A stretch of 64,000 nucleotides of DNA from Pseudobdellovibrionaceae bacterium (GCA_023898385.1 CP060220.1:10370-74369); one strand, 5' to 3'. Positions 11,104 through 39,379 are shown, counted from the first letter of the stretch. Numbers and translations: made by a program. Notes: generated by a model not told the origin, from the sequence alone.

Positions 11104-11230
11104 CCCAAAACCTGGCGAGCTAGTTTCATGAAAGTCTGGGCCTCTATGCTTTCGGGATAACTTTCTACCACAGGAATGCCGGCTTCGCCGGTGAGTCCAA
11201 TGTTGGGGTTAAATGGAATTTGCGCCAACT
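11104..11230 (-). pseudogene. Duplicated 3' fragment of mrp/apbC (direct repeat of 12973-13099)
   Basis: 127 bp with 5 mismatches. Encodes LAQIPFNPNIGLTGEAGIPVVESYPESIEAQTFMKLARQVLG, then L-stop just beyond the repeat. Confidence 0.92.
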
Positions 11231-11696
11231 ACCAAAAAAACGTGAGTTTCAAAGCATTAGCTGAATCCCCAACTGGATGTAAAAAAGGTACGCCATAAAA
11301 TGAGAATGACGGTAGGGTCGTCTCAAACAGGGGGATGGACGCATTGCACCCCTCTCCGCGGAGGTGAAAGTAAACATAACTCTTTTTGCCCGCTTCAGGA
11401 TCGTAGAGAATTCCACCATAGTCGTCCACTGCACAGTCGTATAAATAGGGTTCGTCAACATAGCCACGATACGACCGAGAAAGGTGAAATCCAGTTTGGT
11501 GCCATTCGGAATCATAATTAACCCATTCTAGCTCGAACCGTATGTAGAGAGAATTATTTGCTTCGGAGTACGTAATTTCTCGTGTAAATCTACCTTCCGC
11601 ATCTTTTGCTATGTTAAGTTGAGCTTCTACATAATCAACGTTGGCCAATACTGGTTTGGACAAGAGTAGTATGGCATATATTACGATATTCTTCAT
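11229..11696 (-). CDS. Secreted hypothetical protein
   Basis: 155 aa, signal peptide, purine-rich RBS; the stop codon abuts the duplicated mrp fragment. Confidence 0.7.
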   Translation of the reverse strand: MKNIVIYAILLLSKPVLANVDYVEAQLNIAKDAEGRFTREITYSEANNSLYIRFELEWVNYDSEWHQTGFHLSRSYRGYVDEPYLYDCAVDDYGGILYDPEAGKKSYVYFHLRGEGCNASIPLFETTLPSFSFYGVPFLHPVGDSANALKLTFFW

Positions 11697-11945
11697 AACT
11701 TGTTACCCCCCTTTAAATTTCCAATCTACTAGTGGAATGTCTTTAGAGTCAAATTTTGCTATTTAGAGCCAATGGGACCGGCCTCCAAATCCAGTGAACT
11801 AAGACCAGACGCATCCAGACCTTGGTCTCGGTCACAGATCATCACATCGACATTCACGTTCATCGCACAAAACAGTGGCTGCGACATCAAAAGCGCTTTG
11901 AACGGTGAATTGAGATAATCATAATGGGATCCGGCCTGCAATGTT

Positions 11946-12449
11946 TTACCGAGTTAACAGGTGTTTTGGGATTTTTCTGTAAATGTTGTTTAAGTGAGTT
12001 TTTACAGTAGATGGCGCGATATTCAGGTGTTCGCCAATTTCCCGGTTCGAAAAGCCTTTGAGGATCATCGCTGAGATTTCGAACTCTCTCGGTGTGATCA
12101 AAAAGCTTTTAAGGGCTTCAAGGCGGGCCTCTAAGATCTCATCTTGAGGAGTCAACACAATTACATATTGATCGTCACGATTGATCATCAGGACGTCACA
12201 CCATTGACCATGCATTTGAATATTGCGGCCATAATTGTTGCTACAGGAGCCGGAAAATTTTGAAAGGCAATCTTCATTGCAAGAGACTCCAAGCTGATCA
12301 TTACAAATTGCAACACAGGCCGGGTTTTGGAATTTCACTGGACCACCGGGGGCTTTCATGCACAGACCAATGGATGTTGATTTATCTAAGGAACATTCTG
12401 TTTCTTGGAAATTTCCACCCCGGGGGTCGATGTTATTTTCGACAGACAT
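11946..12449 (-). CDS. LuxR/GerE-type HTH regulator with Cys-rich N-terminal domain
   Basis: C-terminal ITPREFEISAMILKGFSNREIGEHLNIAPSTVKTHLNNIYRK. Confidence 0.85.
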   Translation of the reverse strand: MSVENNIDPRGGNFQETECSLDKSTSIGLCMKAPGGPVKFQNPACVAICNDQLGVSCNEDCLSKFSGSCSNNYGRNIQMHGQWCDVLMINRDDQYVIVLTPQDEILEARLEALKSFLITPREFEISAMILKGFSNREIGEHLNIAPSTVKTHLNNIYRKIPKHLLTR

Positions 12450-12495
12450 GTGGCATAGGTATCTGAATCAAACAGATAAAACAAGGGAGGATGCC

Positions 12496-12954
12496 ATGGG
12501 GTCATTCATCAAAACCGCAAAACTGTTTTCTTTCTGGCTGCCGTTGATTGTAACAAGTGCAAATGCTGCTGAATGCTTTAACCTAATGGAGTTAGGTCGT
12601 CAGACGCCGTCCTATGAACTTTGTGTAAAAGCGACGGGATCAATGAATCCAGGAGGGTGGAAGCCAGCCAATGTTGTTTTGAAGTTGCAAAGCAATAACT
12701 CCATCTTATCTGAATCCAAAGCTGCACTTATCTTCTCGCAGGCGACTGGAGAGAACCTCTCTTTTAATAAAATAGTGCTTACGGAGGAACCCGTAGGTAA
12801 CGACACCTTGATCAAAAAAGTAAATCGTTTTGTTATTCAAGAGATGAACCCTATAGAATTTAAGGTTTCATTTGGCGATCAGCAAAATACAGACGGCCTT
12901 GTGAGTATGGGCGAACAGCTCTATGTCTACAAAAGGGTGGGCGCTGAAAACTAG
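12496..12954 (+). CDS. Secreted hypothetical protein
   Basis: AAGGGAGG RBS before ATG 12496; signal peptide ending ANA-A; divergent from the LuxR gene. Confidence 0.7.
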   Translation: MGSFIKTAKLFSFWLPLIVTSANAAECFNLMELGRQTPSYELCVKATGSMNPGGWKPANVVLKLQSNNSILSESKAALIFSQATGENLSFNKIVLTEEPVGNDTLIKKVNRFVIQEMNPIEFKVSFGDQQNTDGLVSMGEQLYVYKRVGAEN

Positions 12955-12958
12955 CCGA

Positions 12959-12977
12959 TTTAGGACCTGGAACCCAA
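12959..12977 (+). repeat. Third (partial) REP copy, forming the last codons of mrp
   Basis: tttaggacctggaacccaa is identical to 11065-11083. Confidence 0.85.
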
Positions 12978-13745
12978 TACCTGGCGAGCTAGTTTCATGA
13001 AAGCCTGGGCCTCTATGCTTTCGGGGTAACTTTCTACCACGGGCATGCCGGCTTCGCCGGTGAGTCCAATGTTGGGGTTAAATGGAATTTGCGCCAACTT
13101 CTCAATGCCTTTGCTATCAAGGTATTGATCGAGTTCACCTTTTGGAAACAAGGCTATGGGGTCGCCACCGCCGGGGGGTTGAAAATAGGCCATGTTCTCT
13201 ACCACGCCGAGATTTTTTACATTTGTTTTTTCAAACATATCGATGGATTTTTTAGCATCGATGAGTGCGATATTTTGCGGTGTGCAGACGGTGACAGCTC
13301 CATCCACCGGAACTTTTTGGGCCACAGTGAGAGCGATGTCGCCGGTGCCTGGAGGCAAATCAATGATGAGAATGTCCAAATCCCCCCAGTCCACATCGCG
13401 AAAAAACTGGTCCATGGCTTTAAACAGCATGGGTCCCCGCCAAATCACAGCGGAGTCTTCATCTACCAGAAAGCCCATGCTCATCAGCTTCACTCCATGC
13501 CTTACCAAAGGCTGGATTTTTTGATTCTCATCCACCACGGGACGTTGATGAAGGGCCCCAAATAGCCGCGGCATGCTAGGACCATAAAGATCAGCATCCA
13601 GCAGCCCCACCTTTTGTCCTAATTTTTTTAATCCCAGGGCCAAATTGGCGGCCACAGTGCTTTTGCCCACGCCACCCTTGCCTGAGCCAACGGCAATAAT
13701 GCGCTTGATACCAGCAATGGGAGTTTGTTGATCAAATGGGTTCAT
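12960..13745 (-). CDS. mrp: Mrp/ApbC (NBP35 family) Fe-S carrier ATPase
   Basis: GSGKGGVGKST, DADLYGPS, WRGPM, DLPPGTGD, GVVENM. Confidence 0.92.
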   Translation of the reverse strand: MNPFDQQTPIAGIKRIIAVGSGKGGVGKSTVAANLALGLKKLGQKVGLLDADLYGPSMPRLFGALHQRPVVDENQKIQPLVRHGVKLMSMGFLVDEDSAVIWRGPMLFKAMDQFFRDVDWGDLDILIIDLPPGTGDIALTVAQKVPVDGAVTVCTPQNIALIDAKKSIDMFEKTNVKNLGVVENMAYFQPPGGGDPIALFPKGELDQYLDSKGIEKLAQIPFNPNIGLTGEAGMPVVESYPESIEAQAFMKLARQVLGSRS

Positions 13746-13802
13746 GGCATCTCCTTTAATGGCAAGAGTTGAAAATCAACGCCGCGTCACTATAATTATT
13801 AA

Positions 13803-14198
13803 ATGGACCCTAATGTAAAGAATTTTCTGATCGTAAACGGCATCGTGGTGTTGGCGCTGGTGTTCTATTTTCTAAAGCGGCGCAATAACCAACCTACCGT
13901 TTTGAAGATGAAAAAATCTGCAGGTTCGAAAGTGGCTGCGGTGTCCCAATCAGTTCCGGAGCCCCAGGAGGCGATTTTGAATGGGGAGAGGCCCAAGGGT
14001 CGTGATCTCAATGTGATCTTTGTTTTTAATGGCCATCCCTTTGATGCCTATGAGGCCTTGGGTTTGCCGGCGGGTAGTCCCATGCCCGCAGTGAAGCGGG
14101 CCTACGAAGACTCTGTAAAAAAAGTGAATGCGGATTCAAGGGAGTTTATTGATAAAGCCTACGAGTCCATTTGCCGAAAAACGGGCTCCGGTCATTAG
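13803..14198 (+). CDS. Membrane-anchored protein with degenerate C-terminal J-domain-like region
   Basis: N-terminal TM; PFDAYEALGLPAGSPMPAVKRAY resembles J-domain helices I-II; no HPD. Confidence 0.6.
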   Translation: MDPNVKNFLIVNGIVVLALVFYFLKRRNNQPTVLKMKKSAGSKVAAVSQSVPEPQEAILNGERPKGRDLNVIFVFNGHPFDAYEALGLPAGSPMPAVKRAYEDSVKKVNADSREFIDKAYESICRKTGSGH

Positions 14199-14388
14199 AA
14201 TCCCCTTTTGGGGTGTGGTTTTCGCCCCGCCCTCATCCATAAAATTTTAAAGATTTTCATAGCGTTAGCCGCCCGAGATGGGTGCGATTTGGTTGACTGA
14301 AATCGACCGCAAATGGTACCCGAAAAGCTTAAAAGGTTTGATGGCCAAACCAAGTAGAACTTGCCCGCTTTTTATTGAGGAGCCCAAC

Positions 14389-15726
14389 ATGCAGGTTAAT
14401 CGTCTTAAGGACCTCCAAACGCTCGTGTCGCTGGCAAAGCGACGGGGTATTATTTTTCAAAGTAGCGAAATTTACGGAGGGTTAAATTCCTGCTGGGATT
14501 ATGGCCCTTTAGGATCCCAATTTAAGTATAACGTGAAACAAGCGTGGTGGAAGGCGATGACTCGCCGGCGGGATATTGTAGGCCTTGATGCTGCTATATT
14601 GATGCATCCAAAGGTTTGGCATGCCTCGGGCCATGTGGAAGGCTTTACCGATCCGCTTGTGGACTGTCGCAACTGCAAAGCCCGCTTTCGTTTAGATACG
14701 GCACCGAAAAAAGACGGGCAAGTGGTGTGCCCCGAGTGTGGTTCTTCAAATATCACAGAAGCCCGTAATTTTAATCTCATGTTTAAAACATTTATGGGGC
14801 CGGTGGAAGAAGACGCGGCGGTGGTTTTTTTGCGTCCCGAAACGGCGCAGGGAATTTATGTTAACTTTGAAAATGTGGCCACCAGTGCGAGAAAGAAGAT
14901 TCCATTTGGGATTGCCCAAATAGGAAAGTCATTCAGAAATGAAATCACTCCGGGCAACTTCATTTTCAGAACTCGTGAATTTGAGCAAATGGAAATGCAG
15001 TATTTTGTAAAGCCAGGCGAAGATGAGCAATGGTTTGAAACTTGGAAAGAGACCCGTTGGAACTTCTATTTGCATCTCGGTCTTGATGAGCGAAAATTGC
15101 GATTTCATCAGCACGGCGAAGGTGAGTTAGCTCACTATGCGAAAGCGGCATTTGACGTTCACTACGAATTCCCCTTTGGTTGGCAGGAACTCGAAGGCAT
15201 TCACAATCGCAGTGATTTTGATTTGTCTCAGCATCAGAAATTTAGTGGTAAAAAACTAGAATATTTCGACGACACGACAAAAGAAAAGTATCTGCCCTAT
15301 GTGATTGAAACGGCCGTGGGTTGTGACCGTCTTTGTTTGGCACTTCTTTGTGATGCTTATCGAGAAGAGGTCACAACAGATGCCAATGGTAAAGAAGACA
15401 CAAGGGTGGTGTTGGGTTTAAAACCATCGGTGGCCCCAGTGAAAGCCGCCGTCTTACCGCTTTCTAAGAAATCGCCCTTAACTGAGATTTCACAAAAAAT
15501 ATTCGACGACCTAAGCCTCGATTGGGAAATTGACTATGACGATGCTGGCAGTATCGGAAAACGGTATCGACGACAAGACGAGATAGGCACGCCTCTTTGT
15601 ATCACCGTTGATTTCGATACGTCTGAAGATCAAAAAGTCACTGTACGCCACAGAGACAGCATGGAACAGGACCGCGTGGAGTTGGCGCAACTGAAAACCT
15701 ATGTGGCCAATAAACTTGCAGAATGA
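14389..15726 (+). CDS. glyQS: Glycine--tRNA ligase (alpha2 type)
   Basis: [60 protein letters not shown]; RBS GAGGAG before ATG 14389. Confidence 0.95.
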
Positions 15727-15765
15727 TTTTATCGTTTTAATTTTGATTAACCCTGAGGAGGGGGA

Positions 15766-18480
15766 ATGAGCTTGTCAACAGAACCACAAAGCAGCCAGTC
15801 AAAGAAGAAAGTTCCCCAACAATCGGTCTACTTTTTCTCTAAAGGAGAGACCGACGGCCACACGGGAATGCGCGATACCCTTGGCGGCAAGGGGGCCAAT
15901 TTAGCGGAAATGACAAGCCTGGGTTTGCCGGTGCCTCCAGGGTTCACCATTTCCACAGATGTTTGCCAGGCCTTTTATGATAATGACGAGCACCTGCCCG
16001 ATGAAGTTGTGGCGGCGGTGGAAAAGGCCTTGTCCCGAGTAGAAGGCGTGATGGGCAAACAGTTTGGTTCAGCTGAAAACCCATTGCTGGTGAGTGTTCG
16101 CTCTGGTGCGCGGGTGAGCATGCCCGGGATGATGGACACCATTTTAAATCTGGGTCTTAATGATAAAACCGTGCAAGGCTTAGCTCAGGTTTCGGGCAAC
16201 GAACGTTTTGCTTGGGACTCCTATCGAAGATTTCTGCAAATGTATTCTGATGTGGTTATGGGCATGAATGGTTCGCTCTTAGAAGTGACCCTAGAAGATC
16301 TAAAATTTGATAAGGGATACAAGTCAGACACAGAGCTGACTGTCGATGATTTAAAAAAATTAGTGGATCAATTTCGCAGACAAATTCTACAGGATACGGG
16401 TAAAGCCTTTCCTGAAAAACCCAAAGATCAATTGTGGGGAGCCATTAAAGCCGTATTTAAAAGTTGGAACACGGCTCGAGCGGTAACATACAGAGAGCTG
16501 CACGGTTACCCTCACAATTGGGGAACGGCCGTGAATGTTCAGAGTATGGTCTTTGGAAATATGGGCGACGACTCGGCAACGGGTGTGGCGTTTACAAGAG
16601 ACCCATCTACTGGCGAAAAAAAATTCTACGGAGAATTTTTGATCAATGCGCAGGGTGAAGATGTGGTGGCAGGAATTCGAACGCCCCAACCAATTACAAA
16701 ATTAGATGGTGAAGCCTCAGGGCAAGTTTCATTAGAGCAAGCGATGCCTGAAAGTTACAGCCAGCTTGTGGATGTGTACAAAAAACTAGAAACCCATTAT
16801 CGAGACATGCAAGACATTGAGTTCACCATAGAACAGGGTCGGCTGTGGATGTTGCAGACACGCACGGGTAAACGAACAGCTCGTGCGGCCCTCAAGATTG
16901 CCTGTGACATGATTGATGAAAAGCTCATCAACGAAGAAGAAGCACTGCTGCGAATAAATCCGAACAGTCTTGATCAGCTGCTCCATCCCACGCTCGATCC
17001 GAACGCCGAAAAAACGCTGTTAGGTAAAGGTCTGCCGGCAAGTCCGGGTGGAGCCACAGGAGAAGTGGTTTTTTCATCAGAGGCTGCTGTTGAGGCTGTG
17101 AACAAGGGTAAGAAAGTGATACTTGTTCGCGTTGAAACTTCGCCTGAAGATATTGAGGGTATGGTCAAAGCTCAAGGCGTGCTTACTAGTCGCGGAGGAA
17201 TGACTTCTCACGCCGCTGTGGTGGCCAGAGGTATGGGCAAGTGTTGTGTGGCTGGCTGTGAGGAAGCCGATGTGGATTATCAAAAAGCCGAGCTGCGCAT
17301 GCGTGGCTATGTGATCAAGCCCGGAGATATCATCACTCTGGACGGCTCTACCGGAGAAGTGCTGCTCGGAGAAGTGAAGACGGTCGAGCCAAGACTTGAT
17401 GAATACTTTGAGCGAGTGATGAAGCTTGCAGACAAGTATCGAAATTTGGGTATTCGCACCAACGCGGACACGGCCAAAGACGCCACGGTGGCTCGAGAGT
17501 TTGGGGCCGAGGGCATTGGCTTGTGCCGTACTGAGCATATGTTTTTTGCTCCAGAGCGCATCGATGTGGTTCGGCAAATGATTTTGGCTGAAAACAAAGA
17601 GCAACGGATATCGGCACTGGAAAAGCTGCTTCCCATGCAACGTGAAGACTTTGTGGCTTTGTTTAAAGCCATGTCGGGATTGCCAGTGACCATTCGACTT
17701 TTAGATCCGCCGTTACATGAATTTTTACCCCAAGACGAAAAAGACCTTTTGGATTTAGCCAATCGGTTGGGCATAGATCCTTCATCGCTTCGAACAAAAG
17801 TTCGAGCCTTACATGAATTTAATCCCATGTTAGGGCATCGGGGCTGTCGATTGGCGATCACTTATCCCGAAATCTATGAAATGCAAGCCCGTGCGATTGC
17901 TGAGGCCGCCGCCGAAATGGTGAACTCGGGTCAGAGTTTGACTCCTGAAATCATGATTCCGCTTGTGGGAATGGCCGGCGAGCTAGAGCAGCTTCGACAA
18001 CGGGTGGAGCGCACAGTGAGCATGGTAAAAAATGAACGCAACGTGCAATTTGATTATTTAGTGGGCACCATGATTGAGCTCCCGCGAGCGGCCGTGACAG
18101 CAGACAAAATTGCTGCATTTGCTGATTTTTTTAGTTTTGGAACAAACGACCTAACGCAGACCACGCTTGGGATTTCCCGTGATGACGCGGGGCGATTTTT
18201 GGGCAGCTATGTGAATGAAGGGCTGCTGCCGGCCGATCCATTTGCCAGTTTAGATCAAGAGGGCGTTGGATATTTAGTGCAAAAAGGTGTTGAATTAGGA
18301 CGTAAAACAAAGCCTGATATTAAGTTAGGAATTTGTGGAGAGCACGGTGGAGATCCAGCGAGCATTGAATTTTTCAATGGAGTGGGTCTCGACTATGTGA
18401 GTTGTTCGCCCTATCGAGTGCCTATAGCTCGTTTGGCGGCAGCTCGTGCGGCGATAATTCAACGAAAGGTCGAACATTGA
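15766..18480 (+). CDS. ppdK: Pyruvate, phosphate dikinase
   Basis: LGGKGANLAEM, VRSGARVSMPGMMDT, GGMTSHAAVVARG, GLCRTEHMF, GICGEHGG. Confidence 0.97.
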   Translation: MSLSTEPQSSQSKKKVPQQSVYFFSKGETDGHTGMRDTLGGKGANLAEMTSLGLPVPPGFTISTDVCQAFYDNDEHLPDEVVAAVEKALSRVEGVMGKQFGSAENPLLVSVRSGARVSMPGMMDTILNLGLNDKTVQGLAQVSGNERFAWDSYRRFLQMYSDVVMGMNGSLLEVTLEDLKFDKGYKSDTELTVDDLKKLVDQFRRQILQDTGKAFPEKPKDQLWGAIKAVFKSWNTARAVTYRELHGYPHNWGTAVNVQSMVFGNMGDDSATGVAFTRDPSTGEKKFYGEFLINAQGEDVVAGIRTPQPITKLDGEASGQVSLEQAMPESYSQLVDVYKKLETHYRDMQDIEFTIEQGRLWMLQTRTGKRTARAALKIACDMIDEKLINEEEALLRINPNSLDQLLHPTLDPNAEKTLLGKGLPASPGGATGEVVFSSEAAVEAVNKGKKVILVRVETSPEDIEGMVKAQGVLTSRGGMTSHAAVVARGMGKCCVAGCEEADVDYQKAELRMRGYVIKPGDIITLDGSTGEVLLGEVKTVEPRLDEYFERVMKLADKYRNLGIRTNADTAKDATVAREFGAEGIGLCRTEHMFFAPERIDVVRQMILAENKEQRISALEKLLPMQREDFVALFKAMSGLPVTIRLLDPPLHEFLPQDEKDLLDLANRLGIDPSSLRTKVRALHEFNPMLGHRGCRLAITYPEIYEMQARAIAEAAAEMVNSGQSLTPEIMIPLVGMAGELEQLRQRVERTVSMVKNERNVQFDYLVGTMIELPRAAVTADKIAAFADFFSFGTNDLTQTTLGISRDDAGRFLGSYVNEGLLPADPFASLDQEGVGYLVQKGVELGRKTKPDIKLGICGEHGGDPASIEFFNGVGLDYVSCSPYRVPIARLAAARAAIIQRKVEH

Positions 18481-27208: not shown

Positions 27209-27428
27209 TTCCCGTTTGCAACTCATGGCGTTAGTTGAGTCCGAGAGCGACGAAGTGGAGGGCGGCGGGCCATCGTCGTCATCCCGATGTGCATGGCGTA
27301 TCCGGGTTGCAGCACGCAGTGATGCAATCCGAAGACGACATGCGGCCACTCGGGCCTGCGACGATGGCCCGCCGCCCTCCACTTCGTCGCTCTCGGACTC
27401 AACTAACGCCATGAGTTGCAAGCGGGAA
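27209..27428 (+). repeat. Long hairpin element, copy 1 (70-bp arms, conserved structured core)
   Basis: Arms 27209-27278 and 27359-27428 are complementary with one G-U pair; core 27283-27354 is shared with 41804-41876. Confidence 0.9.
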
Positions 27429-27500
27429 CTTGGTTAGGGCTTGGGTCCTTGTTTGTTGGGTCAAGGGGGCGCGCCTTGCCAGATGTTGGGCTGGCATTAG

Positions 27501-27561: not shown

Positions 27562-27579
27562 GAAGTTTTGGAGGTGTTG

Positions 27580-28338: not shown

Positions 28339-28340
28339 CG

Positions 28341-28853: not shown

Positions 28854-28920
28854 GCTAACTCGTGTAGCATTCCTCCAGGGGGAAGTCGGGATCCCTACTA
28901 GCTATCGAATGAAGGGAAAT

Positions 28921-31143: not shown

Positions 31144-31406
31144 GGTGTTTGAAGACTTCAATATCTATAGCAATAATCATTGGCATGACTGTGCTGTCAG
31201 CATGTGCCCCTAAAATCTATGTGATGGATCGCCCCACTGTGATGGAGGAAGAAGCGTCAGGATCCTGGCCTAATTTCACCAAAGACCTAAAGAAAAACGC
31301 GTTGAGCAAGGGGCCCACGTTTTTTCCAAAAGAAAAAGAGAACAACAAAAAAGCCCGCGTTTATAACATACTCAATGGCGACCTTACCTCAAAAAATCAG
31401 GAGTAA
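31140..31406 (+). CDS. Small lipoprotein (YnbE/DUF1318-like)
   Basis: Lipobox LSAC; overlaps the upstream stop. Confidence 0.6.
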   Translation: MRCLKTSISIAIIIGMTVLSACAPKIYVMDRPTVMEEEASGSWPNFTKDLKKNALSKGPTFFPKEKENNKKARVYNILNGDLTSKNQE

Positions 31407-31412
31407 TAGCCA

Positions 31413-34400
31413 ATGTTTCGATTTCAAAAACAGCTTGGATTGTTTCTCGTCTTTGTTTTGGCAACTGTAGCCCTAAATTGTTCAGCTTCTGCTGAAACAG
31501 AAGCCGAGCGCCACACTCGCTTGTTGCTTCGTCTTTTGCCCCTCAATAAGATCACTGTGGGCCCCTATGACAACTACCAAGGCTCGTTTGTGAAAGGTGG
31601 CCAACAGCTCCTTTTTTCTCGAAAGGTCGATCTGGCACCGCGAATATACAAATTGGATTTAAACACAGGTAAAGAGACGCCTCTTCTTGATTTAGCTTTT
31701 GACTCTAAAGATCCTCACGTCAGTAGCACGGGCGACAAGATTGTTTTTGTGTATTTTAAAAATCGAGCGAGGGGTCAGGTCTGCGTCAAGTCGATTGATT
31801 CCGCAGATGCTGAATCTTGTTTAGATCACAGCACCAAAGAGCCCGCATTCCCTGTATGGGTGGGTGAACATCAGGTGGCCTTTATTCTTCGTGATCTGGC
31901 AAAGCGAAAAAGCGAAGTGGTGCTCTGGGATTTAAAGGCGCAAAATTCAAGGGTGGTGGCCCAGGGCCATATTTCATCTTTGACCTGGTCTGAATCTCAA
32001 CAAAAAATCCTTTACACATCGGATGAAGGGATAGTGGTTTCTGATGTTTCGGGTGTGTCAAAATATGATCTCAAGTTGGATTTGCCAGGAATGCCCGGTT
32101 TTCTCTCTGCGGGCGAGGACGGATATGTTTACTTCAGTCACTACCTCAGTGACACCAATAACGATCAAATTGTTGACGCCAACGACAATGCCGTCGTATT
32201 CAGACTGCCTTTGGTTGAGGCCAAAGGTGGATCTCGGTTGGTGTTTCCGGAGCCATTGACATCAGTCGAGTACAACTGCAGTTTTCCGCAAGCGGCACGG
32301 CAGTCTTTGCTGGTGACCTGTGCGTTTGAGGGAACTCTCGATATCTATGAACTTCCCCATGCGGGAATGGTGCCATCAAGTTGGGACCACCAAATTCTTG
32401 AGAATGCCAGAAAGACTAGTCGCACCTATGCCGAACGGCTATTTTTAACTCAATCGTTAATATTTCGAAATGGGACTTTTTCTGCAGAGAAGAGTCTTCA
32501 GCAGTTGATGAGCAATCACTTGCTTGCAGAGGATGGATCGGCCACGCGATATTATCTAAAACGATTGATCGAGTTATATCCAAAGACTTCGTCTCTTTAC
32601 GCTCTTCTTGATGTCTATGTTCAAGGGCTGCAGTTTAAAAAGAAAGAAACTGTGGACCCACTTTCTCGGGCCTTCTCGCGAGAAGTGAGCCAATTCTTAA
32701 CAAAACTGGGTGCAATAAAAGGGGTGAATAAACAGAAAAAATTAGTGCATGCCGTATTTGACCTATGGAGCGGCAATGGGACGCGGGCCGCAGCCGTGTT
32801 GAAAGATCAAGAGACTTTAAAAGTCTCTAGCACTATTGACGGGTACTTGTTGTTTCAACTTATTGAAACTTACTCTGGCCGCCGTGGTGCGGTCGCACGA
32901 GGGGTCGACTCAGGATATTTAGCGCTCATCACCACATCAGATTTACCAGAAGAGAGCCAGCTCTTCTATGCCCACCGACTTTTGACGTACATCCAAAAAA
33001 GTGAGCCTGATCTTAAAAAACGAAAGACCTTAGTGGCGCGCTTTCAAAAAAAGTGTGAGCCTGGATCCTCGGTCGAGACTCTGATGCAGGCCGAAGTGGT
33101 TTCGTTAAATATTGTTTTGACTTTGGGCTTACAAGATAAGCGAAAAGTGTACAACGACCTAGACAAGTTGATGAGCCAAACCCGGGACAACTATTACTTA
33201 CGAAAAGCTTTATATGTAAGAGCTATAGCCACATTGGTTGAAGCGGACGAGTATGATATTGCCGGTTACGTCGCCACCAATTGGTTGAAGTACACAAAGC
33301 CAGTGGATACAGAATTTAGCTACGCAAAGACCCAATACATCTATTCAGTTTTTGACGAAGCCTATTCAAGCTATGGAAGTCAGAATTATCTTTTGGCCTC
33401 CAATCACTTCTTGGCAGGGCTTCGCCTAACCGATGACTTAGAGGCTCATTTCGGGTATATTCAATCGCTTTTGAAGCTAAAAAAACGACAAGAAATTGAC
33501 AAACAATATGATAATTTAAAAAAGCGGTCGTTCATCGGCGACAACATAACTTATGTAGAAACGCTCTTAGAGCTACTTGATGGTGAGGAGCGGGGCACTT
33601 TAGAATCCAAGGAAGTCAGGCGGGCCGTTGATAGGCTCAATGGTTTAACTGTTGAAAACTTCTCGCCCGTATTACACCTGACCATCGGCGCCCTTTATGT
33701 TTGGCTTTTAGACAGCGAAAGTAAAGGCCTAGATTTCTCGCAAGAAGATCTGGACAAGGCTCATAAGCATTTGATGTTGGCCTTTGATTTGGGAAGAAAC
33801 AATCAACGACTTCGAGCTTCGGCTTTGATAGACCTCGGTTTATTGCATCAGAGGGTGCGAAATTATTCTTTGTCGGCCCGATTTTTTGCAGATCGAAAAA
33901 AATTTGGATTTACAAGTGACGAGGAGAGGCTTGCGTTTTCATGGCTATACAGTCGGACCCTTTATTTATCGAACAATGCCAGTGGAGCCGCTGCAGAGCT
34001 TGCGGAATTGTTGTCTACCCAGCCAAAGGCGGAGGGCGATGGTTATTTGTTTGAGCGTCTGGCTTTTTATCAACAAGCCAGCGAACAATGCAAACAGTCC
34101 ATTGCCAACTATGACAAGGCTTTTGCAAAACTCTTAAAGTTAGCCGATGATCAACACGAAATGAAGATGCACCTAGGGCGTGGAGTTTGTTATTTTCGTG
34201 AAGAAAAGAAAAAGCCTGCAAAAGAAGATTTCTTAAAGGTAGTTGAGATCTCAAAAACATTGGTGAGTGAGAAGCCCACAGGCGATCGACCCTTGCCATT
34301 TAGGCCAGAGCGCCAACAGTTGTTGGCTTTAGGATATTTGGCCCAATTGAGTCAGGGCGCTGAAAGTGCAGGTTACCTGGAAGAGCGAGCTCAGTTGTTG

Positions 34401-34910
34401 GACTTAGTGGGTGATCAAATCAACTCATTTGCTATGAAAGAAGAATCCCTTTTGGGTTTCAAAGTAAAAAACAACCTTCAGCTTGCTGAAAAAAGGCTCG
34501 AAAGCGGGCGCAACGAAGGTGCCAACAGGTATTTGGTTTTGGCCCTGCGCGATTCTTGGCGTCTTGTTGGGGATTTAGAGCAGCCGCTCAGTGTGGTGGC
34601 ATTGAATGCTGTTGAAGCCTATTTGTTGCTTGCTGCTACGAAAAATTATGAAAGGTCGGGCGACGGTCACAAGTTGGCAGGCCAATTAACGTCGACGATT
34701 CAGGAGGCGTTAGTGAAGGTGCAAAAAACTCAACAGCAGCCCATTTGGGCCTTTAGGCAAACGAAGCTGGCTTTGTTGTGGGCAAAATACGAAGGGCGCA
34801 ATTTAGACCAAGAGCTGACATTGCCGCAGGCGGTGTTTTTAAAGCAACAAAGCCCTGAACGTTGGCAACAGCTCAAAGAATTATCTCAGTTGTTAGCGGC
34901 TCCACTTTGA
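31413..34910 (+). CDS. Large exported protein: TolB-like propeller plus TPR/helical region
   Basis: Signal peptide; PD40-like repeats (DPHVSSTGDKIVF, FPVWVGEHQVAF) followed by long helical repeats. Confidence 0.75.
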   Translation: MFRFQKQLGLFLVFVLATVALNCSASAETEAERHTRLLLRLLPLNKITVGPYDNYQGSFVKGGQQLLFSRKVDLAPRIYKLDLNTGKETPLLDLAFDSKDPHVSSTGDKIVFVYFKNRARGQVCVKSIDSADAESCLDHSTKEPAFPVWVGEHQVAFILRDLAKRKSEVVLWDLKAQNSRVVAQGHISSLTWSESQQKILYTSDEGIVVSDVSGVSKYDLKLDLPGMPGFLSAGEDGYVYFSHYLSDTNNDQIVDANDNAVVFRLPLVEAKGGSRLVFPEPLTSVEYNCSFPQAARQSLLVTCAFEGTLDIYELPHAGMVPSSWDHQILENARKTSRTYAERLFLTQSLIFRNGTFSAEKSLQQLMSNHLLAEDGSATRYYLKRLIELYPKTSSLYALLDVYVQGLQFKKKETVDPLSRAFSREVSQFLTKLGAIKGVNKQKKLVHAVFDLWSGNGTRAAAVLKDQETLKVSSTIDGYLLFQLIETYSGRRGAVARGVDSGYLALITTSDLPEESQLFYAHRLLTYIQKSEPDLKKRKTLVARFQKKCEPGSSVETLMQAEVVSLNIVLTLGLQDKRKVYNDLDKLMSQTRDNYYLRKALYVRAIATLVEADEYDIAGYVATNWLKYTKPVDTEFSYAKTQYIYSVFDEAYSSYGSQNYLLASNHFLAGLRLTDDLEAHFGYIQSLLKLKKRQEIDKQYDNLKKRSFIGDNITYVETLLELLDGEERGTLESKEVRRAVDRLNGLTVENFSPVLHLTIGALYVWLLDSESKGLDFSQEDLDKAHKHLMLAFDLGRNNQRLRASALIDLGLLHQRVRNYSLSARFFADRKKFGFTSDEERLAFSWLYSRTLYLSNNASGAAAELAELLSTQPKAEGDGYLFERLAFYQQASEQCKQSIANYDKAFAKLLKLADDQHEMKMHLGRGVCYFREEKKKPAKEDFLKVVEISKTLVSEKPTGDRPLPFRPERQQLLALGYLAQLSQGAESAGYLEERAQLLDLVGDQINSFAMKEESLLGFKVKNNLQLAEKRLESGRNEGANRYLVLALRDSWRLVGDLEQPLSVVALNAVEAYLLLAATKNYERSGDGHKLAGQLTSTIQEALVKVQKTQQQPIWAFRQTKLALLWAKYEGRNLDQELTLPQAVFLKQQSPERWQQLKELSQLLAAPL

Positions 34911-34977
34911 ATCCACTGTTCAAGCGCGGCTTGCTCACTGGTGCTGAGATTTACAACGCCATTGATGGGGGTGTTGA
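34830..34977 (+). repeat. Left 148-bp direct repeat bounding island 2
   Basis: Matches 39232-39379 with 3 mismatches. Confidence 0.93.
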
Positions 34978-35183
34978 AGCGAAATATACTCGCAGGAATT
35001 GCCAAAATCTAAATGGCCATGAACTGTTTCGGTCCGACTTTTCTGATTCTGGAGTTAACAATTTTGCTCTTGGTTTATGAAAGCACCTTTCGACTCTGCT
35101 GTTGGGAGCGTTCAGCTCGGGTCTTTTGGCCTGGCTTGATCTAAGAATTTGATATATTTGTTCAGAGAGGTTCACACTCAACT

Positions 35184-35211
35184 GTTAAGTCAACCGGTCG
35201 GTCTACTTAAC
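35184..35211. promoter_or_regulatory. Imperfect 28-bp palindrome resembling a TetR-family operator
   Basis: gttaagtcaaccggtcggtctacttaac is self-complementary at 22/28 positions. Confidence 0.4.
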
Positions 35212-35273
35212 TCCCCGTTATCGTTTGTGTTTTTTTTTTGGTTGCAAACAATTCTAATAACCTTTGCGCCATC

Positions 35274-36492
35274 TGTAGACTGCGGTTGATGGTGTCAGTG
35301 ACTTAGGCTGCCTTCATGGTTGTCTCACTTTGGGTATCGGCAGCCAATAATTTTTCTTTAGCCCCGGGTTTTAGCACTTGAGGGTACTGCAAGAGGTACT
35401 CGTTAGCAGACTTCCATCCGAGAGCTTTTCGGAGCCGCCAAGAGTTTTTCCATTGGCAATACTGTTCGAGGTATTCATTAAGCTGTTCGATGTTTTGCGG
35501 TCTTGCTCGATGGAACAACTCTTCATCGTCCATGCGGTGTGAACGCTCTACAAGCCCGTTAAGCTCTTTTTCTCCTGGAGGTATGAGTCTGTGCCTGATG
35601 CCGTGTTCATCGCATAGTTCATCCAAAATATGCGGCAAAGGATCGTCGATTCGTGAGACAAATTTATTCGTAAATTCCACGCCATTGTCTGTCTGAGTGC
35701 TGGTTATCCAAAAAGGCACTGCTCTTAGTAGTTCAATCATAAAGCGTTCAGTCTCCCAGTGACCATAACCTTCATAGGCCCTCTTAAACTCCCACCTCGA
35801 TGCGTGATCAACGAAGTTATAGACGTAACACTTCTTGCCGTTTTCAAGGAGCGTTGTTTGCCAATTAACATCGATCTGCGTGTGCACTCCTGGCAACTCT
35901 ACCTTCACAACGGTGGTGTGGCTAGACGCCGGCTTTGCACGCCTCTTAGAGCCCACAAGGCCCGCGTTCTTCAAAAACCGATGGATACGATACAGTGACA
36001 GCTCCACTCCAAGGTAACGTTTGAGGTGGGCTTGTATCACCTCAGCGCCCCAACCACAGAGTTTGCGCCATCGCCTGATGTGATAAGCCGTCCAGCCAGT
36101 GATGTCCTGTGCTTGTCGCCCTGGTGCCTTTCTTGGCGTTAGTTTTCTGTGTCCACCCTCGAGGTAACTCTTTCTCCAGCGATAAACAGTACGGCCAGAT
36201 TTACCGATTTCCAGACCCACAAGTTCATAGTCTAAGTCCGAAAGGTTGCCAGAATGTTCCCTTTTAGCTAGCTCTATCAACGCAAGTAGTCTCAAAGTGA
36301 GAATCTTATCTTTTTTTCGAAATTTCTTGGCTTCTCTTCGCAGTTTATCTAAATTAAGACGCATTGCTAACTCCTTGTTCTTCTTGGTGTTTCTTAATTT
36401 GAGACTTTAAATTTCACCAAGAAGACTTGGAGTTTTTCAAGTAAAATCAACGTTTCCCGCCATTTCACTGACAAAATCAACCGAAGCCTAAA
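35274..36492 (-). mobile_element. IS481-family insertion sequence (1219 bp)
   Basis: 28-bp imperfect IRs (tgtagactgcggttgatggtgtcagtga 35274-35301; tcactgacaaaatcaaccgaagcctaaa 36465-36492); direct repeat acctttgcgccatc at 35260-35273 and 36493-36506. Confidence 0.9.
35303..36364 (-). CDS. IS481-family DDE transposase
   Basis: N-terminal HTH (RTVYRWRKSY); D (TQIDV), D (QTDNGVEF), E (NGLVERSHR). Confidence 0.9.
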   Translation of the reverse strand: MRLNLDKLRREAKKFRKKDKILTLRLLALIELAKREHSGNLSDLDYELVGLEIGKSGRTVYRWRKSYLEGGHRKLTPRKAPGRQAQDITGWTAYHIRRWRKLCGWGAEVIQAHLKRYLGVELSLYRIHRFLKNAGLVGSKRRAKPASSHTTVVKVELPGVHTQIDVNWQTTLLENGKKCYVYNFVDHASRWEFKRAYEGYGHWETERFMIELLRAVPFWITSTQTDNGVEFTNKFVSRIDDPLPHILDELCDEHGIRHRLIPPGEKELNGLVERSHRMDDEELFHRARPQNIEQLNEYLEQYCQWKNSWRLRKALGWKSANEYLLQYPQVLKPGAKEKLLAADTQSETTMKAA

Positions 36493-36510
36493 ACCTTTGC
36501 GCCATCATCC

Positions 36511-36537
36511 TCAAGATTTTGCTAGACGATCCGATAG
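36511..36537 (+). promoter_or_regulatory. FliA/sigma28-like promoter
   Basis: TCAA-N15-TCCGATAG, 37 bp upstream of ATG 36574. Confidence 0.55.
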
Positions 36538-36573
36538 ATAGTGAAGGCTTTTTCCATTTTAGAGGACAATAGA

Positions 36574-38361
36574 ATGCGAGCAGCTACAACCACATTGATA
36601 CAGGCGACCTTGCGGGCATTGACCGGCCTGACAGCTCTCCCTCTGCTGTTTGGCTGTCAACTTGCTAACAACGAAATCAATGGCAGCATTAAGTCCCCGC
36701 CTCAGACCCCCGGAAGCCCAAGTCCAGTTGTTCCTCAATTAAGCTACTCCGGGGTACCTGATTACTTTGTTGCAGGTCAAAATATTGCATCTTTAACACC
36801 AACAACAAACGTTGTTAGCGGAGGGATCTATAGTGTTTCCCCGCCATTGCCTGCAGGCCTAGTATTAAATGAAGTCTCCGGTGCAATCTCAGGCGCTCCA
36901 ACGAATGCATTTTCGCCAACAACATTCTCTCTCACATTGACTCACGATGGACAAACAGTAACTGACTCTATCGAGTTGGAAGCAGGCCTTTTATTTTTAG
37001 TCAATACTGTCAACGATACCAGCGACATTAACCCAGGCGACGAAATTTGCGGTGATTTTTCTGGTGACTGTTCCGTCCGTGCAGCATTTGAGGAGGGGGC
37101 GGCGCTTTCTGATATTTTGGTTGTGGTCGATGTTCCCGCGGGCAACTACGACTTGCCATCCAATCCTCTCACCATTAGCTCTCGAGTGATAATGAATGGT
37201 GCCGGACCCAGCCAAACGATCTTCGACGCCAACCCTGATGCGTCTCCCATTGAACATGTCTTCATTATTGATGCCGTGGCGGAAGCCACCCTTAGAGGTT
37301 TTGCCGCGGTCAATGCCAATATAGTCAATGGCACTAACTTCTTAGGAATATTATATTTGGGATATGGAGGGGGCATCTATAGTCAAGCCGACACTCTGAA
37401 TTTAGAAAACTGCGATGTCTCTGGACATCGTGACACGCCAGGTACTCTAACGACAACCATGGGCTTAGGAATTTATTCTGCTGGATCATATCTTAACGTT
37501 GATAACTGCACAATTGACGACAATGTGTCGTCGTTGTCCGCAGGAGTCGGGTTCGCAAATGGAGGAGCAGGCATTGCTCATTTCGGAATCACCCACATCA
37601 GAAACTCTGTGATCTCGAACAACACCATGCTCAATGCCAACGACTCGACAGGGGGAGGTTTATGGTTAGATGCGGCAACAATTGAGGACTCCCAGATATT
37701 TGGTAATCGGGCAAGACTACATGGCGCTGGGATTAATGCCTCTAGTTTAACTTTGATTAATTCGCAAGTTTTTCTCAATGGCGGCAGTGGCATCGTGTTT
37801 GGGGCTGGCATACGATTAGGGAGTGGCGCCGTAAAAAATAGTGCTGTCTATGATAATTTTGGTGGCGATGCTGAAATTTACGGGGTCGATGGAACCATCG
37901 AGGTCAATAACTCCACCGTTTTTTCAAACAATACGCCCTTTGCCATAATTTCTGATGATGCCCATTTTCAAATACTTCACAGCACATTGGTTACCGATGT
38001 GAGCGTTGCACTAAACACCTCTGGGACAGGTTCTGGTACACATACACTGGGCCATTCCATTGTACATGCTATTTCAGGGGACAGTTGTGGCAATGCTTCA
38101 AGAGTCACGTCTACAGGTTATAACATTATTAACGATTTGACCTGCAACTTTTCTAGTGTTGGCGATGTGGAAAATATTGATCCTGAAGTGGGAGTCATTG
38201 CCAATAACGGCGGACCCACGTCCACCATGGCCATCAGTGCCACTAGCCCGGCTCGCAATGCCATTCCAGCTAGTAATTGCAACTTGTCGGTTGATCAAAG
38301 AGGCGAACCTCGTCCGATGGGAGGCGCATGCGACATTGGTGCGTTTGAATACGCTGAGTAG
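36574..38361 (+). CDS. Surface lipoprotein: putative Ig domain, CSLREA-type domain, beta-helix, choice-of-anchor-Q-like C-terminus
   Basis: Lipobox LFGC; PPLPAGLVLNEVSGAISGAP; VNTVNDTSD...GDCSVRAAFEE; DQRGEPRPMGGACDIGAFE. Confidence 0.8.
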   Translation: MRAATTTLIQATLRALTGLTALPLLFGCQLANNEINGSIKSPPQTPGSPSPVVPQLSYSGVPDYFVAGQNIASLTPTTNVVSGGIYSVSPPLPAGLVLNEVSGAISGAPTNAFSPTTFSLTLTHDGQTVTDSIELEAGLLFLVNTVNDTSDINPGDEICGDFSGDCSVRAAFEEGAALSDILVVVDVPAGNYDLPSNPLTISSRVIMNGAGPSQTIFDANPDASPIEHVFIIDAVAEATLRGFAAVNANIVNGTNFLGILYLGYGGGIYSQADTLNLENCDVSGHRDTPGTLTTTMGLGIYSAGSYLNVDNCTIDDNVSSLSAGVGFANGGAGIAHFGITHIRNSVISNNTMLNANDSTGGGLWLDAATIEDSQIFGNRARLHGAGINASSLTLINSQVFLNGGSGIVFGAGIRLGSGAVKNSAVYDNFGGDAEIYGVDGTIEVNNSTVFSNNTPFAIISDDAHFQILHSTLVTDVSVALNTSGTGSGTHTLGHSIVHAISGDSCGNASRVTSTGYNIINDLTCNFSSVGDVENIDPEVGVIANNGGPTSTMAISATSPARNAIPASNCNLSVDQRGEPRPMGGACDIGAFEYAE

Positions 38362-38562
38362 ATCCACGACTGACTTTTTAAACAGCTTGGCACCGCACTG
38401 TCGCCGCAAAAGGAAACCAGGTGCCGTGGTGCCCCCTGGCGGGCGATCTTCGTTCCGCTATTATGGGTTATTTTAAAAAGCCAAGTAGTTTAAATTATTT
38501 TAATATTTCTATTTACTGGAGGACATCTTTTGGCGTTTCCGAGCCTGTTCTCTAGCTCGAAG

Positions 38563-38591
38563 TTGACATATATGTGCAATGTATGTATAAT
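38563..38591 (+). promoter_or_regulatory. Consensus sigma70 promoter for a probably leaderless TA transcript
   Basis: TTGACA-N17-TATAAT, with ATG 7 nt after the -10 box; palindrome ACATATATGT (38566-38575) overlaps the -35. Confidence 0.85.
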
Positions 38592-38597
38592 GTAATA

Positions 38598-38834
38598 ATG
38601 CCGACGATCTTTGTTATTGGCCCATTTAAGATCATCATAAATACAAAAGATCACCGGCCAGCCCATGTGCACTGTGTTGGACCAGGTGTTTTTGTGATTG
38701 TTGAAATTGTGACCCAAGAAGTGATTCGTAATAAAGGGGTTTCTCCAAAGGATATTAAACGGCTGCAATTGTTTATTGAAGGAAACAAGGATGTCTTGAT
38801 GAACGAATGGAGGCATTACCATGAAGAAGAATAA
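38598..38834 (+). CDS. DUF4160-like putative toxin
   Basis: MPTIFVIGPFKIII..KDHRPAHVH...W pattern. Confidence 0.75.
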   Translation: MPTIFVIGPFKIIINTKDHRPAHVHCVGPGVFVIVEIVTQEVIRNKGVSPKDIKRLQLFIEGNKDVLMNEWRHYHEEE

Positions 38835-39063
38835 AGAATCTAAAAGTCTTTTAACAGATAAAGACATGAAGCCTGAAAATGTGAAAGCCAACATCACCAT
38901 TCGCATTTCTGGTGAGTTGTTAAACGCTTACCGCAAAGAGGCCGAAAAGCTTGGAATTGGTTATCAGACTTTGATGCAAATTAAGCTTAAAGAAGGACTG
39001 GATCATTCTCTTGAACGGCGGCTTGAAAAACTTGAAAAGGCCTTGAAAACAAAGGCTGGCTAA
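38821..39063 (+). CDS. BrnA/CopG-like ribbon-helix-helix antitoxin
   Basis: NITIRISGELLNAYRKEAEKLGIGYQTLMQIKL; overlaps the toxin stop. Confidence 0.8.
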   Translation: MKKNKESKSLLTDKDMKPENVKANITIRISGELLNAYRKEAEKLGIGYQTLMQIKLKEGLDHSLERRLEKLEKALKTKAG

Positions 39064-39172
39064 TGCCTTCGGCCCGACTTATCTTATTCGGGACTTAACA
39101 CTTTTGTTCTAGACTTATCGTGGCAGCTCTCAACTCTACCCGTGGGAGCGTTCAGCTAGGGTTTTGGCTTTC

Positions 39173-39241
39173 TTACTTAATTTCATCGAGCGATCTCCTT
39201 AAGCGTTTCTTGCTTGTTTCGATCTCCTTCTGCGGTGTTTT
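39173..39241 (-). pseudogene. C-terminal remnant of a RelE/Gp49-like toxin
   Basis: Reads KTPQKEIETSKKRLRRSLDEIK*; truncated at the island direct repeat. Confidence 0.4.
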
Positions 39242-39379
39242 TAAAGCAACAAAGCCCTGAGCGTTGGCAAGAGCTCAAAGAATTATCTCAGTTGTTAGCG
39301 GCTCCACTTTGAATCCACTGTTCAAGCGCGGCTTGCTCACTGGTGCTGAGATTTACAACGCCATTGATGTGGGTGTTGA
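39232..39379 (+). repeat. Right 148-bp direct repeat bounding island 2
   Basis: Matches 34830-34977 with 3 mismatches. Confidence 0.93.

Follow-up and report, generated by a model that had tools for sequence, protein, structure and literature searches.

Two small islands in the genome of a Pseudobdellovibrionaceae bacterium raise the question of how a cassette of accessory genes comes to lie between two long copies of neighbouring gene ends when no integrase adjoins it. Both islands are located in a 64,000-nucleotide stretch of DNA, the whole of which is referred to below as the window (GCA_023898385.1, C1:10370-74369 of a single-contig 3.33-Mb genome); positions are those of the window unless given as genome-window coordinates. 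We consider both islands, with a probability of about 0.5, to be cases of integrase-independent ‘insertion with long target duplication’, in which the cargo together with one copy of the target would circulate as a circle by general homologous recombination. The evidence that carries this reading comes from metagenome contigs of the same species, where island 2 and two islands from other parts of the genome (I4 and I6) have both filled and precisely empty alleles.

Islands bounded by duplicated gene ends

A repeat search over window positions 9000-42000 detected two pairs of long direct repeats. The D2 pair (11104-11230 and 12973-13099), which bounds island 1, is 127 nt long with 96% identity and five mismatches; the D1 pair (34830-34977 and 39232-39379), which bounds island 2, is 148 nt long with 98% identity and three mismatches. 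The original prediction, made from the sequence alone, had placed both islands between repeats of 127-148 bp at ∼96-98% identity, and this description holds: by BLAST, D1 and D2 are each present in exactly two copies in the whole 3.33-Mb genome. The right copy of D2 overlaps the 3′ end of mrp/apbC, being the last 127 nt of the gene, and D1 holds the overlapping 3′ ends of two convergent genes, gene A (a TPR protein) and gene B (a cytochrome-c-like lipoprotein). The repeats and their target genes are the following (REP, repetitive extragenic palindrome; ORF, open reading frame).

11065-11230, no strand: D2L, left repeat of island 1 in its extended form; REP end 11065-11083, 25-nt spacer and non-functional 127-nt mrp 3′ fragment 11104-11230
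12959-13099, no strand: D2R, right repeat of island 1 in its extended form; REP end fused directly to the functional mrp 3′ end
12960-13745, minus strand: mrp/apbC, target gene of island 1; NUBPL-type P-loop ATPase (Pfam ParA PF10609, E=1.5e-92)
31413-34910, plus strand: gene A, left target of island 2; 1165-aa exported protein with TPR
34830-34977, no strand: D1L, left repeat of island 2; functional gene A end and 67-nt non-functional gene B end
39232-39379, no strand: D1R, right repeat of island 2; 56-nt non-functional gene A end and functional gene B end
39288-39785 (ORF to 39854), minus strand: gene B, right target of island 2; cytochrome-c-like lipoprotein of 165 aa (188-aa ORF)

A separate metagenome-assembled genome (MAG), GCA_020434665.1, carries island 1 at 99.95% identity with both repeat copies, as well as island 2 with both of its copies, and several ENA and Logan contigs cross individual island junctions. 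Since the same junctions recur in an independent MAG and in ENA and Logan contigs, the structures are not assembly artefacts. The observation of repeat-flanked islands is real, and the original description of them is partly confirmed, with corrections given below.

A transposon would be recognized by terminal inverted repeats (TIRs) at both ends and a short target-site duplication (TSD) of fixed length. No inverted repeats bounding island 1 or island 2 were found in the repeat search, and the duplications are 127-166 bp and 148 bp long; as originally stated, they are far longer than transposon TSDs and are not tRNA att sites. No restriction-modification (RM) genes were detected by Pfam, NCBIfam or PADLOC in the inserts of island 1 (1.7 kb) or island 2 (4.25 kb). 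No RNA family in Rfam accounts for the island repeats or for the miniature inverted-repeat transposable element (MITE) described below.

Recurrence of the pattern in the genome

We screened the whole genome for two-copy repeats of 70-700 bp with at least 88% identity. Thirteen direct pairs were found at distances of 0.4-15 kb, with no inverted pair in that range, no pair of either orientation at 15-100 kb and only seven pairs farther than 100 kb apart. At least 8 of the 13 local direct repeats overlap gene ends as in islands 1 and 2; the same island grammar is thus recurrent, as the original prediction had it. In islands I4 and I6 the duplicated piece holds the ends of two convergent genes, precisely as in island 2. 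I4 and I6 each carry a single defence-type gene (AAA_14/DUF4143), and these match PDC-S01, a candidate defence family of PADLOC, with E-values of 1e-99 and 1e-55. The cargo of I5 is a 404-aa HNH endonuclease. From island to island the repeats show no sequence relationship, and their lengths range from 94 to 652 bp (94 bp in I6, 170 bp in I4 and 652 bp in I3); the edges of I4 and I6 have no REP, MITE or insertion sequence (IS).

As a control we used part of one genome, 2.0 Mb from the start of Pseudobdellovibrio sp. HCB154, in which there are two local direct pairs, compared with 10 in the first 2.0 Mb of the genome studied here (p∼0.02), so that the expectation of a higher frequency than in a control was borne out against this one partial genome. 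Genes similar to REP-associated tyrosine transposases (RAYTs) are present in both genomes; therefore, the presence of RAYT does not explain the difference in repeat counts. The pattern of repeat-flanked islands exceeds chance and recurs genome-wide.

Filled and empty alleles

Empty sites were sought by exact look-ups of flanking proteins in sludge metagenome contigs. Precise empty sites of island 2 were found in three contigs, L096, L098 and L099 (...34977 joined to 39232... via one 148-bp copy), and a single sample, ERZ28655133, contains both the empty (L096) and the filled (L089) allele. The empty site of I6, between folA and the gene of an NtrC-like regulator, is present in contig L125 with a single 94-bp copy, and JGI contig L123 spans the entire I6 island. 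For I4, two contigs (L236 and L237) have the empty site with a single 170-bp copy. An empty site of I3 was not recovered, as the contigs end within the repeat.

In all three islands with a known empty allele (island 2, I4 and I6), the copy at the empty site is identical to the left repeat in its left part and to the right repeat in its right part, with a single change from one to the other. Counted along the repeat, this switch falls between positions 40 and 139 for island 2, between positions 33 and 89 for I4 and beyond position 53 for I6. In island 2, D1L agrees with the empty allele at mismatches 1 and 2 and differs from it at mismatch 3 (G at 34968); D1R differs at mismatches 1 and 2 (G at 39261 and 39271) and agrees at mismatch 3. 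In I4, which has ten variant sites, the difference at position 89 is inside the functional gene A end; selection on gene boundaries therefore does not determine where the switch falls. Filled and empty alleles have flanks of 99.8-100% identity, whereas the two repeat copies differ by 2-6%. Divided by function, the functional halves together with the flanks are 0-0.2% diverged between filled and empty alleles, the inner halves 2-10%.

Gene A occurs in two haplotypes with 57 differing sites over 31588-34238 (∼1.9-2%), and identity resumes abruptly from 34239. A recombination breakpoint is located near 34238, ∼590 bp to the left of island 2; in a comparison of left flanks, both haplotypes occur with and without the island.

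At the empty island-2 site the 3′ end of gene B overlaps gene A by 25 nt, and another genus of the family has homologues of the two genes side by side in convergent orientation. Among 80 relatives, the mrp locus has the order glyS-p131-mrp-(variable)-SLT/LysM, and in many of these mrp is near the convergent SLT/LysM gene with no island-1 cargo genes between them. Convergent neighbours in the outgroup (genes A and B) and in the relatives (mrp and SLT) indicate that the empty state is ancestral and that the islands are insertions. Island 2, I4 and I6 are proven presence/absence polymorphisms, and their cassettes are dispensable.

Exchange through the repeats

The structure may be described as an accessory-gene cassette set between two direct copies of a 130-170-bp target piece. 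As the target piece holds the 3′ ends of the flanking genes, each of these genes keeps an intact end and nothing is broken. The single left-to-right switch in the empty alleles shows that the repeats are the sites of exchange and that one homologous crossover interconverts filled and empty alleles. Campbell-type integration predicts repeats that are hybrid in the manner of attL and attR, with one switch per repeat, and such repeats are found in island 2, I4 and I6; the reverse reaction predicts the same. The exchange would proceed by general (RecA-type) recombination with no dedicated recombinase. A crossover between the repeats would release a circle made of the cargo and one repeat, and a circle coming from a lineage 2-6% diverged could re-enter an empty site by a Campbell-type single crossover. 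Re-entry from a diverged lineage would explain why the inner halves differ from the empty allele, mostly at third codon positions.

The first linkage of cargo and target may have been an illegitimate, microhomology-assisted join, as the truncated toxin gene at one edge, the MITE end at the other and the REP at one island-1 repeat boundary suggest; the IS481 copy and the MITE pieces are passengers. As substrates of general homologous recombination the repeats would allow precise loss, and gain was probably of Campbell type, from a circle with its own diverged copy of the target.

The differences between repeat copies bear on the origin of the inner halves. Among 50 mismatches, 10, 11 and 29 are at codon positions 1, 2 and 3, respectively; 26 are synonymous and 24 non-synonymous. 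The excess at third positions has p∼2e-4 against a uniform distribution and ∼0.02-0.05 against a model of copies decaying in situ. When changes are polarized by the empty sites, 9 of 15 are at third positions (p∼0.03). The codon-position bias and the I4 difference within a functional gene end both favour inner halves that arrived together with the cargo, as an allele that had diverged but was once functional.

Several points weigh against circulation by circles. A deletion between the repeats gives the same empty allele, so the direction of exchange may be the opposite one, and integration of a circle is what we infer from the pattern. Repeats of 94-170 bp that are 2-6% diverged are expected to be poor substrates for homologous recombination. 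The synonymous bias of the copy differences is only moderate, and in island 2 two of the three changes are non-synonymous. For the inner repeat halves, neither a donor nor a sister lineage was found in the genome collection, where the genus has no other species; the nearest homologues are 49% identical for the I3 target gene and 35% for the island-2 cargo. An empty site of island 1 was not found by exact-protein look-ups (mrp, RAYT and p131), by two pattern scans of JGI metagenome contigs or by a cluster look-up: the protein look-ups gave only filled contigs or contigs ending in a 55-nt identical stretch of the repeat, and the cluster look-up only a C-terminal fragment of the same allele. Presence/absence polymorphism of island 1 is thus an assumption.

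A broader proposal, to which we give somewhat less than even odds, is that such accessory or defence cassettes follow a general, recombinase-free route of mobility. Each would carry a 100-650-bp ‘address tag’ copying two core-gene ends and would cycle between lineages as a circle, with excision and re-integration performed by the homologous recombination of the host; the tag would target the cassette to a harmless site and repair the interrupted genes.

Alternative explanations

The most serious competitor of circle exchange is a duplicative insertion made in situ. In this lineage, a linear fragment would have been captured once by illegitimate (microhomology) joining at two breaks lying 130-170 bp from each other, as might arise at a stalled fork or on sister chromatids, and the target duplication would be the direct product. 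The non-functional halves would since have decayed, and no circle would ever re-integrate; an empty allele would either survive from the ancestor or result from a later deletion between the repeats. In its favour, the junctions have an illegitimate look, with 3-11 nt of microhomology at a truncated HigB-like gene, a REP loop and a MITE terminus, and the confinement of differences to the inner, non-functional halves is what decay predicts. It is also the usual reading of published cases, whose two copies resemble each other more than they resemble the target of the other strain (PMC2853133), and the two non-synonymous changes out of three in island 2 suit it. The excess of third-position (29/50) and synonymous changes (26 versus 24) is, however, above the expectation for one decaying and one constrained copy (p∼0.02-0.05); functional halves with flanks diverged by 0-0.2% stand against inner halves diverged by 2-10%, and the I4 switch point falls within a functional gene end. 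We regard an insertion in situ as possible, though on the unlikely side.

Site-specific islands are classically recognized by protein-gene 3′ ends that are duplicated with imperfect identity, and the single switch suits a recombination of attP with attB. One may therefore suppose decayed islands or elements similar to cis-mobilizable elements (CIMEs), inserted by a tyrosine or serine integrase at the 3′ end of the target and bringing a replacement end, as phages 21 and e14 do at icd, the integrase gene being later lost or acting in trans. The genome has nine tyrosine and two serine recombinases (PF00589, PF00239) and does contain a classical tRNA-att island with an integrase (genome-window coordinates 1269423-1271914), which served as an internal positive control. 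Still, no tyrosine or serine recombinase was found in or beside islands 1, 2, I3, I4, I6 and I7, there is no common att core, and the cargo stops at a truncated toxin gene on one side and at a MITE terminus on the other instead of at defined element ends. The original statement that the islands lack a recombinase holds for these two classes, but island 2 does carry an IS481-like DDE transposase, a passenger. I4 and I6 consist of one defence-type gene each, and unrelated repeats of 94-652 bp would require many different integrases; this variety argues against a site-specific enzyme and against a staggered cut of the transposase type. None of the 80 related mrp loci, which were not screened for integrase genes, has the duplicated mrp 3′ end or the island-1 cargo genes. 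Decay of integrase islands is improbable on this evidence. A still weaker case can be made for breaks and duplication produced by REP/RAYT in island 1 or by MITE/IS481 machinery in island 2. One island-1 duplication boundary is inside a REP beside a RAYT-like gene, and the island-2 cargo begins exactly at a MITE terminus. The inverted REPs, however, bracket the RAYT gene only (10211-11083). In island 1 just one REP end adjoins the cargo, on the right and as part of the duplicated target, and island 2 has none. A triggering role of RAYT, originally suggested, is not supported, as only one of the boundaries read is in a REP and the relative bearing RAYT-like genes has five-fold fewer such repeats. 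The IS481 copy is missing in a sister strain that already carries the island and made a TSD of 15 bp, not 148; island 2 has one MITE end only, the second MITE piece being internal and in direct orientation; and the edges of I4 and I6 are devoid of REP, MITE and IS. This makes transposase- or RAYT-driven origin very improbable. An assembler stacking two strain alleles in tandem would produce copies differing by 2-4%, the same order as the divergence of gene A between strains, and filled and empty alleles do occur together in one sample. But both junctions are present in the independent MAG and in short-read contigs from multiple samples that span the whole repeat and both sides, and the complete I6 island is covered by one JGI contig, which leaves this explanation practically negligible.

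Composition of island 2

The cargo of island 2 is a mosaic which consists, in order, of a MITE piece, an IS, an exported protein, a DUF4160/CopG-like pair, an internal MITE piece and a HigB/HigA-like remnant.

34981-35129, plus strand: MITE 5′ piece covering 149 nt of the ∼465-bp element; family TIR TAGAAATTTACTCGC, here GAAATATACTCGC
35274-36493, minus strand: IS481-like IS of 1220 bp with an rve DDE transposase (35303-36364, minus strand)
36541-38361, plus strand: exported lipoprotein, the main cargo; 595-606 aa, He_PIG and choice-of-anchor Q domains
38574-39063, plus strand: toxin-antitoxin-like pair; DUF4160 (DhiT-like) 38574-38834 and CopG/BrnA-like antitoxin 38821-39063
39067-39165, plus strand: internal MITE fragment with no TIR, in direct orientation relative to the left fragment, 77% identity
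39151-39231, minus strand: HigB/HigA-like remnant of 81 nt; last toxin codons and antitoxin start

The MITE piece begins 3 nt past D1L, so the left cargo edge is a MITE terminus. At the right edge the HigB-like toxin gene is cut off against D1R at GCGG(T/C)GT(T/C)TTT; an intact paralogue of the remnant is located at genome-window coordinates 2299301-2299381. The ∼10-bp microhomology (aaaacaccgc) first read at this junction is not upheld: relative to the intact genomic paralogue only 3 nt are perfect. In the variant strain L086 the junction GCGGCGTCTTT matches the target (GCGGTGTTTTT) at 9 of 11 positions and the paralogue at 10 of 11. The founding join nevertheless looks illegitimate, as predicted, with a truncated toxin gene meeting the target at a short, imperfect microhomology. 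At the equivalent of 39201-39240, L086 (ERZ27309371) has also lost ∼20 bp immediately left of D1R, and two further differences are found at the first bases of the repeat. These changes make its junction more like the HigB-like paralogue and suggest that the edge of the repeat has been shortened or lengthened, depending on the strain, by gene conversion.

The IS481-like IS has five near-identical copies in the genome (≥99.8%, the island-2 copy included), one copy at 95% and several fragments. The sister MAG GCA_020434665.1 has island 2 without this IS, and the comparison gives a 15-bp TSD, AACCTTTGCGCCATC. Being absent there and having its own TSD, the IS is a later passenger, and its absence at the site in the sister MAG indicates recent activity. 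As the cause of island 2 it is ruled out, since the island exists without it and the TSD is 15 bp, not 148. Several copies of the IS adjoin MITE copies or AAA_14/DUF4143 genes.

The MITE family (∼465 bp, 15-16-bp TIRs) has ∼15 copies or fragments in the genome; a full copy is L083 999-1463, and some copies have an extra internal hairpin. A group II intron was considered as the origin of what appeared as a family of ∼100-150 nt and was rejected, the family being this MITE. A direct-orientation pair of MITEs flanks a 3.5-kb cassette with an AAA_14/DUF4143 gene and two ORFs (genome-window coordinates 1562598-1566994).

The cargo proteins of both islands have signal or lipoprotein N-termini, as judged from sequence, in agreement with the original description of exported-protein cargo. 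The main island-2 protein is 35% identical to its nearest outside homologue, and the cargo has 43-45% GC (genome 47%). With no close outside homologue and a GC content near that of the genome, the proposed origin from prey DNA is unsupported.

Island 1 and the mrp locus

Island 1 is simpler in composition. Its cargo and left neighbour are listed below.

10211-11083, minus strand: RAYT-like unit; RAYT-like gene 10274-10936 between inverted 47-nt REP arms (10211-10257 and 11037-11083)
11231-12958, no strand: island 1 cargo, 1728 bp, GC content 43%
11229-11696, minus strand: 155-aa secreted protein; two-member cluster, no family-library match
11946-12449, minus strand: LuxR/GerE regulator
12493-12954, plus strand: 152-aa secreted protein

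The RAYT-like unit is the left neighbour of the island and lies outside the cargo. The gene matches Pfam Y1_Tnp at E=5e-4 and NCBIfam REP_Tyr_transpos at 47 bits, under the cut-off of 80; the REP has ∼15 copies genome-wide. The REP overlap noted originally is present: the duplication starts inside a REP, into which it extends by 19 nt, with TTTAGGACCTGGAACCCAA at 11065-11083 and 12959-12977; the REPs are those of the RAYT-like unit. D2R lacks the 25 nt found between two CCCAA pentamers in the left copy, and as a result the mrp stop codon is inside the REP. The C-terminus of mrp now reads ...QVLGSRS before the stop, and the left fragment ...ARQVLGL before the stop. A recurrent att site at mrp was rejected as an explanation, given that neither the duplicated 3′ end nor the cargo genes occur at the 80 related loci.

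A c-di-GMP-I riboswitch aptamer (9804-9887, minus strand; 62.5 bits, above the gathering score) has the SLT/LysM gene on one side and the RAYT unit on the other; it falls within the variable region downstream of mrp and is unrelated to the island repeats. Elsewhere in the window, a 202-nt direct repeat (58155-58356 and 60666-60867; 91%, six copies) inside a giant ORF (53459-67714) represents protein repeat modules and no island boundary. Two long imperfect hairpins, 27209-27428 and 41753-41927, with arms of 79 and 56 nt, have a core of ∼42 nt in common; miRNA-like Rfam matches at 41745-41930 were dismissed as sub-threshold hairpin artefacts.

Loci elsewhere in the genome

About 15 diverged paralogues of the AAA_14/DUF4143 ATPase (25-55% identity; PADLOC PDC-S01) are present in 3.3 Mb, two of them as the sole cargo of polymorphic islands. 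Their genes are found at genome-window coordinates 142198, 351818, 1360644, 1564188, 2936868, 2999973, 3304351 and others. Just upstream of the start codon, most of them carry TTGAC and then a palindrome of 10-21 bp that is specific to the paralogue, which suggests autoregulation. A hairpin shared by cargo edges was rejected: the palindrome with a 21-bp stem at the left edge of I6 is the promoter or operator of the gene itself and is common to most of these paralogues.

The left 652-bp repeat of I3 is preceded, at a distance of 5 nt, by the end of a 117-aa HNH gene; the HNH sites are at genome-window coordinates 77265-83431 and 1343889-1346144. A 12-kb segment (genome-window coordinates 3289091-3301470) resembles, by N-terminal sequences only, a nirK/norB/norQ/norD denitrification cluster. 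Direct repeats of 231 bp (98.3%) bound the segment; their four mismatches are all at third codon positions of the flanking ORF, and MITE copies are near. The locus at genome-window coordinates 1876173-1881701 is permuted and has the order A - x - B / A′ - cargo - B′: directly after repeat B, of 200 bp, comes a 488-bp copy of A (normally 582 bp upstream of B), then a methyltransferase gene, a sensor-kinase-like gene and B again. A single crossover with a circularized A′-cargo-B′ fragment would fit this locus, and so would tandem duplication with replacement.

Comparison with known systems

Insertion with long target duplication was reportedly described by Nobusato et al. in 2000 (Gene 259:99). 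To our knowledge, the pattern was described for RM genes in 2000-2010 and then largely left aside, its mechanism never being solved. Small accessory islets with no mobility genes make up much of the strain-level variation of bacteria, and their arrival is mostly unexplained. The original prediction did not recognize the islands as this described phenomenon (PMC2853133). Furuta, Abe and Kobayashi (2010; NAR 38:2428, PMC2853133) reported it for RM units in Helicobacter and then in many bacteria, with target repeats of 46-423 bp that are unique in the genome, are present in one copy in the empty-site strain and often cover the 3′ ends of neighbouring genes. The inserts had no mobility genes and carried RM systems and a lone HNH gene, mcrA; the mechanism was left unsolved, a cycle of insertion, amplification and release being hypothesized.

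By the definition used there, the segment is absent from a collinear empty site of the same species, which we found for island 2, I4 and I6; repeats longer than 30 bp align to one empty-site copy (148 bp in island 2, 94 bp in I6 and 170 bp in I4); and the repeat has two copies with no responsible mobility gene, as here. RM genes in an insert shorter than 20 kb, a filter of their screen and no part of the rearrangement type, are not found. The likeness extends to long direct repeats of variable length around a cassette insert (46-423 bp there, 94-652 bp here) and to selfish or defence-type cargo elsewhere in the genome (the HNH gene, AAA_14/DUF4143 and toxin-antitoxin modules). In contrast to those cases, islands 1 and 2 carry secreted proteins, a LuxR regulator and toxin-antitoxin-like pairs instead of RM genes, the host is a Bdellovibrionota predator from activated sludge with many cases in one 3.3-Mb genome, and filled and empty alleles coexist in one community. 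Furthermore, in several published cases the two copies are nearer to each other, whereas here each copy, being a hybrid, is nearer to the empty target than to the other copy.

What the present data add is the natural filled/empty polymorphism at three loci, and coexistence of the alleles makes the hypothesis of release and re-entry directly testable. If the address-tag cycle were true, these coexisting alleles and the divergence of the inner repeat halves, which looks selected, would be the first population-level evidence for the step of release and re-infection hypothesized for RM units. More than 10 cases are found in this one genome, and what they carry is diverse, from secreted proteins and remnants of toxin-antitoxin modules to an HNH nuclease, a single-gene candidate defence system and even a 12-kb denitrification-like cluster. 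For annotation it follows that duplicated gene ends beside small inserts need not mean a lost integrase.

Duplication of a protein-gene 3′ end is well known from phage 21 and e14 at icd and from other integrase islands, and CIMEs are integrase-less elements bounded by att sites. The islands resemble these in their imperfect direct repeats of 3′ ends, in the gene remaining functional and in hybrid ends of the attL/attR kind. They differ in having no integrase in cis and no evidence for one in trans, in sites that are not reused in relatives, in repeats unrelated between islands and in cargo edges formed by truncated genes. Campbell-type integration of circles, as of suicide plasmids, and homology-facilitated illegitimate recombination (HFIR) are known mainly from laboratory constructs, and HFIR normally yields an insertion with a deletion, not a duplication. 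With them the islands share homology duplicated around the insert, loss by the reverse crossover and microhomology at one cargo edge. The islands belong to a rearrangement type already described, in a new host and with new cargo.

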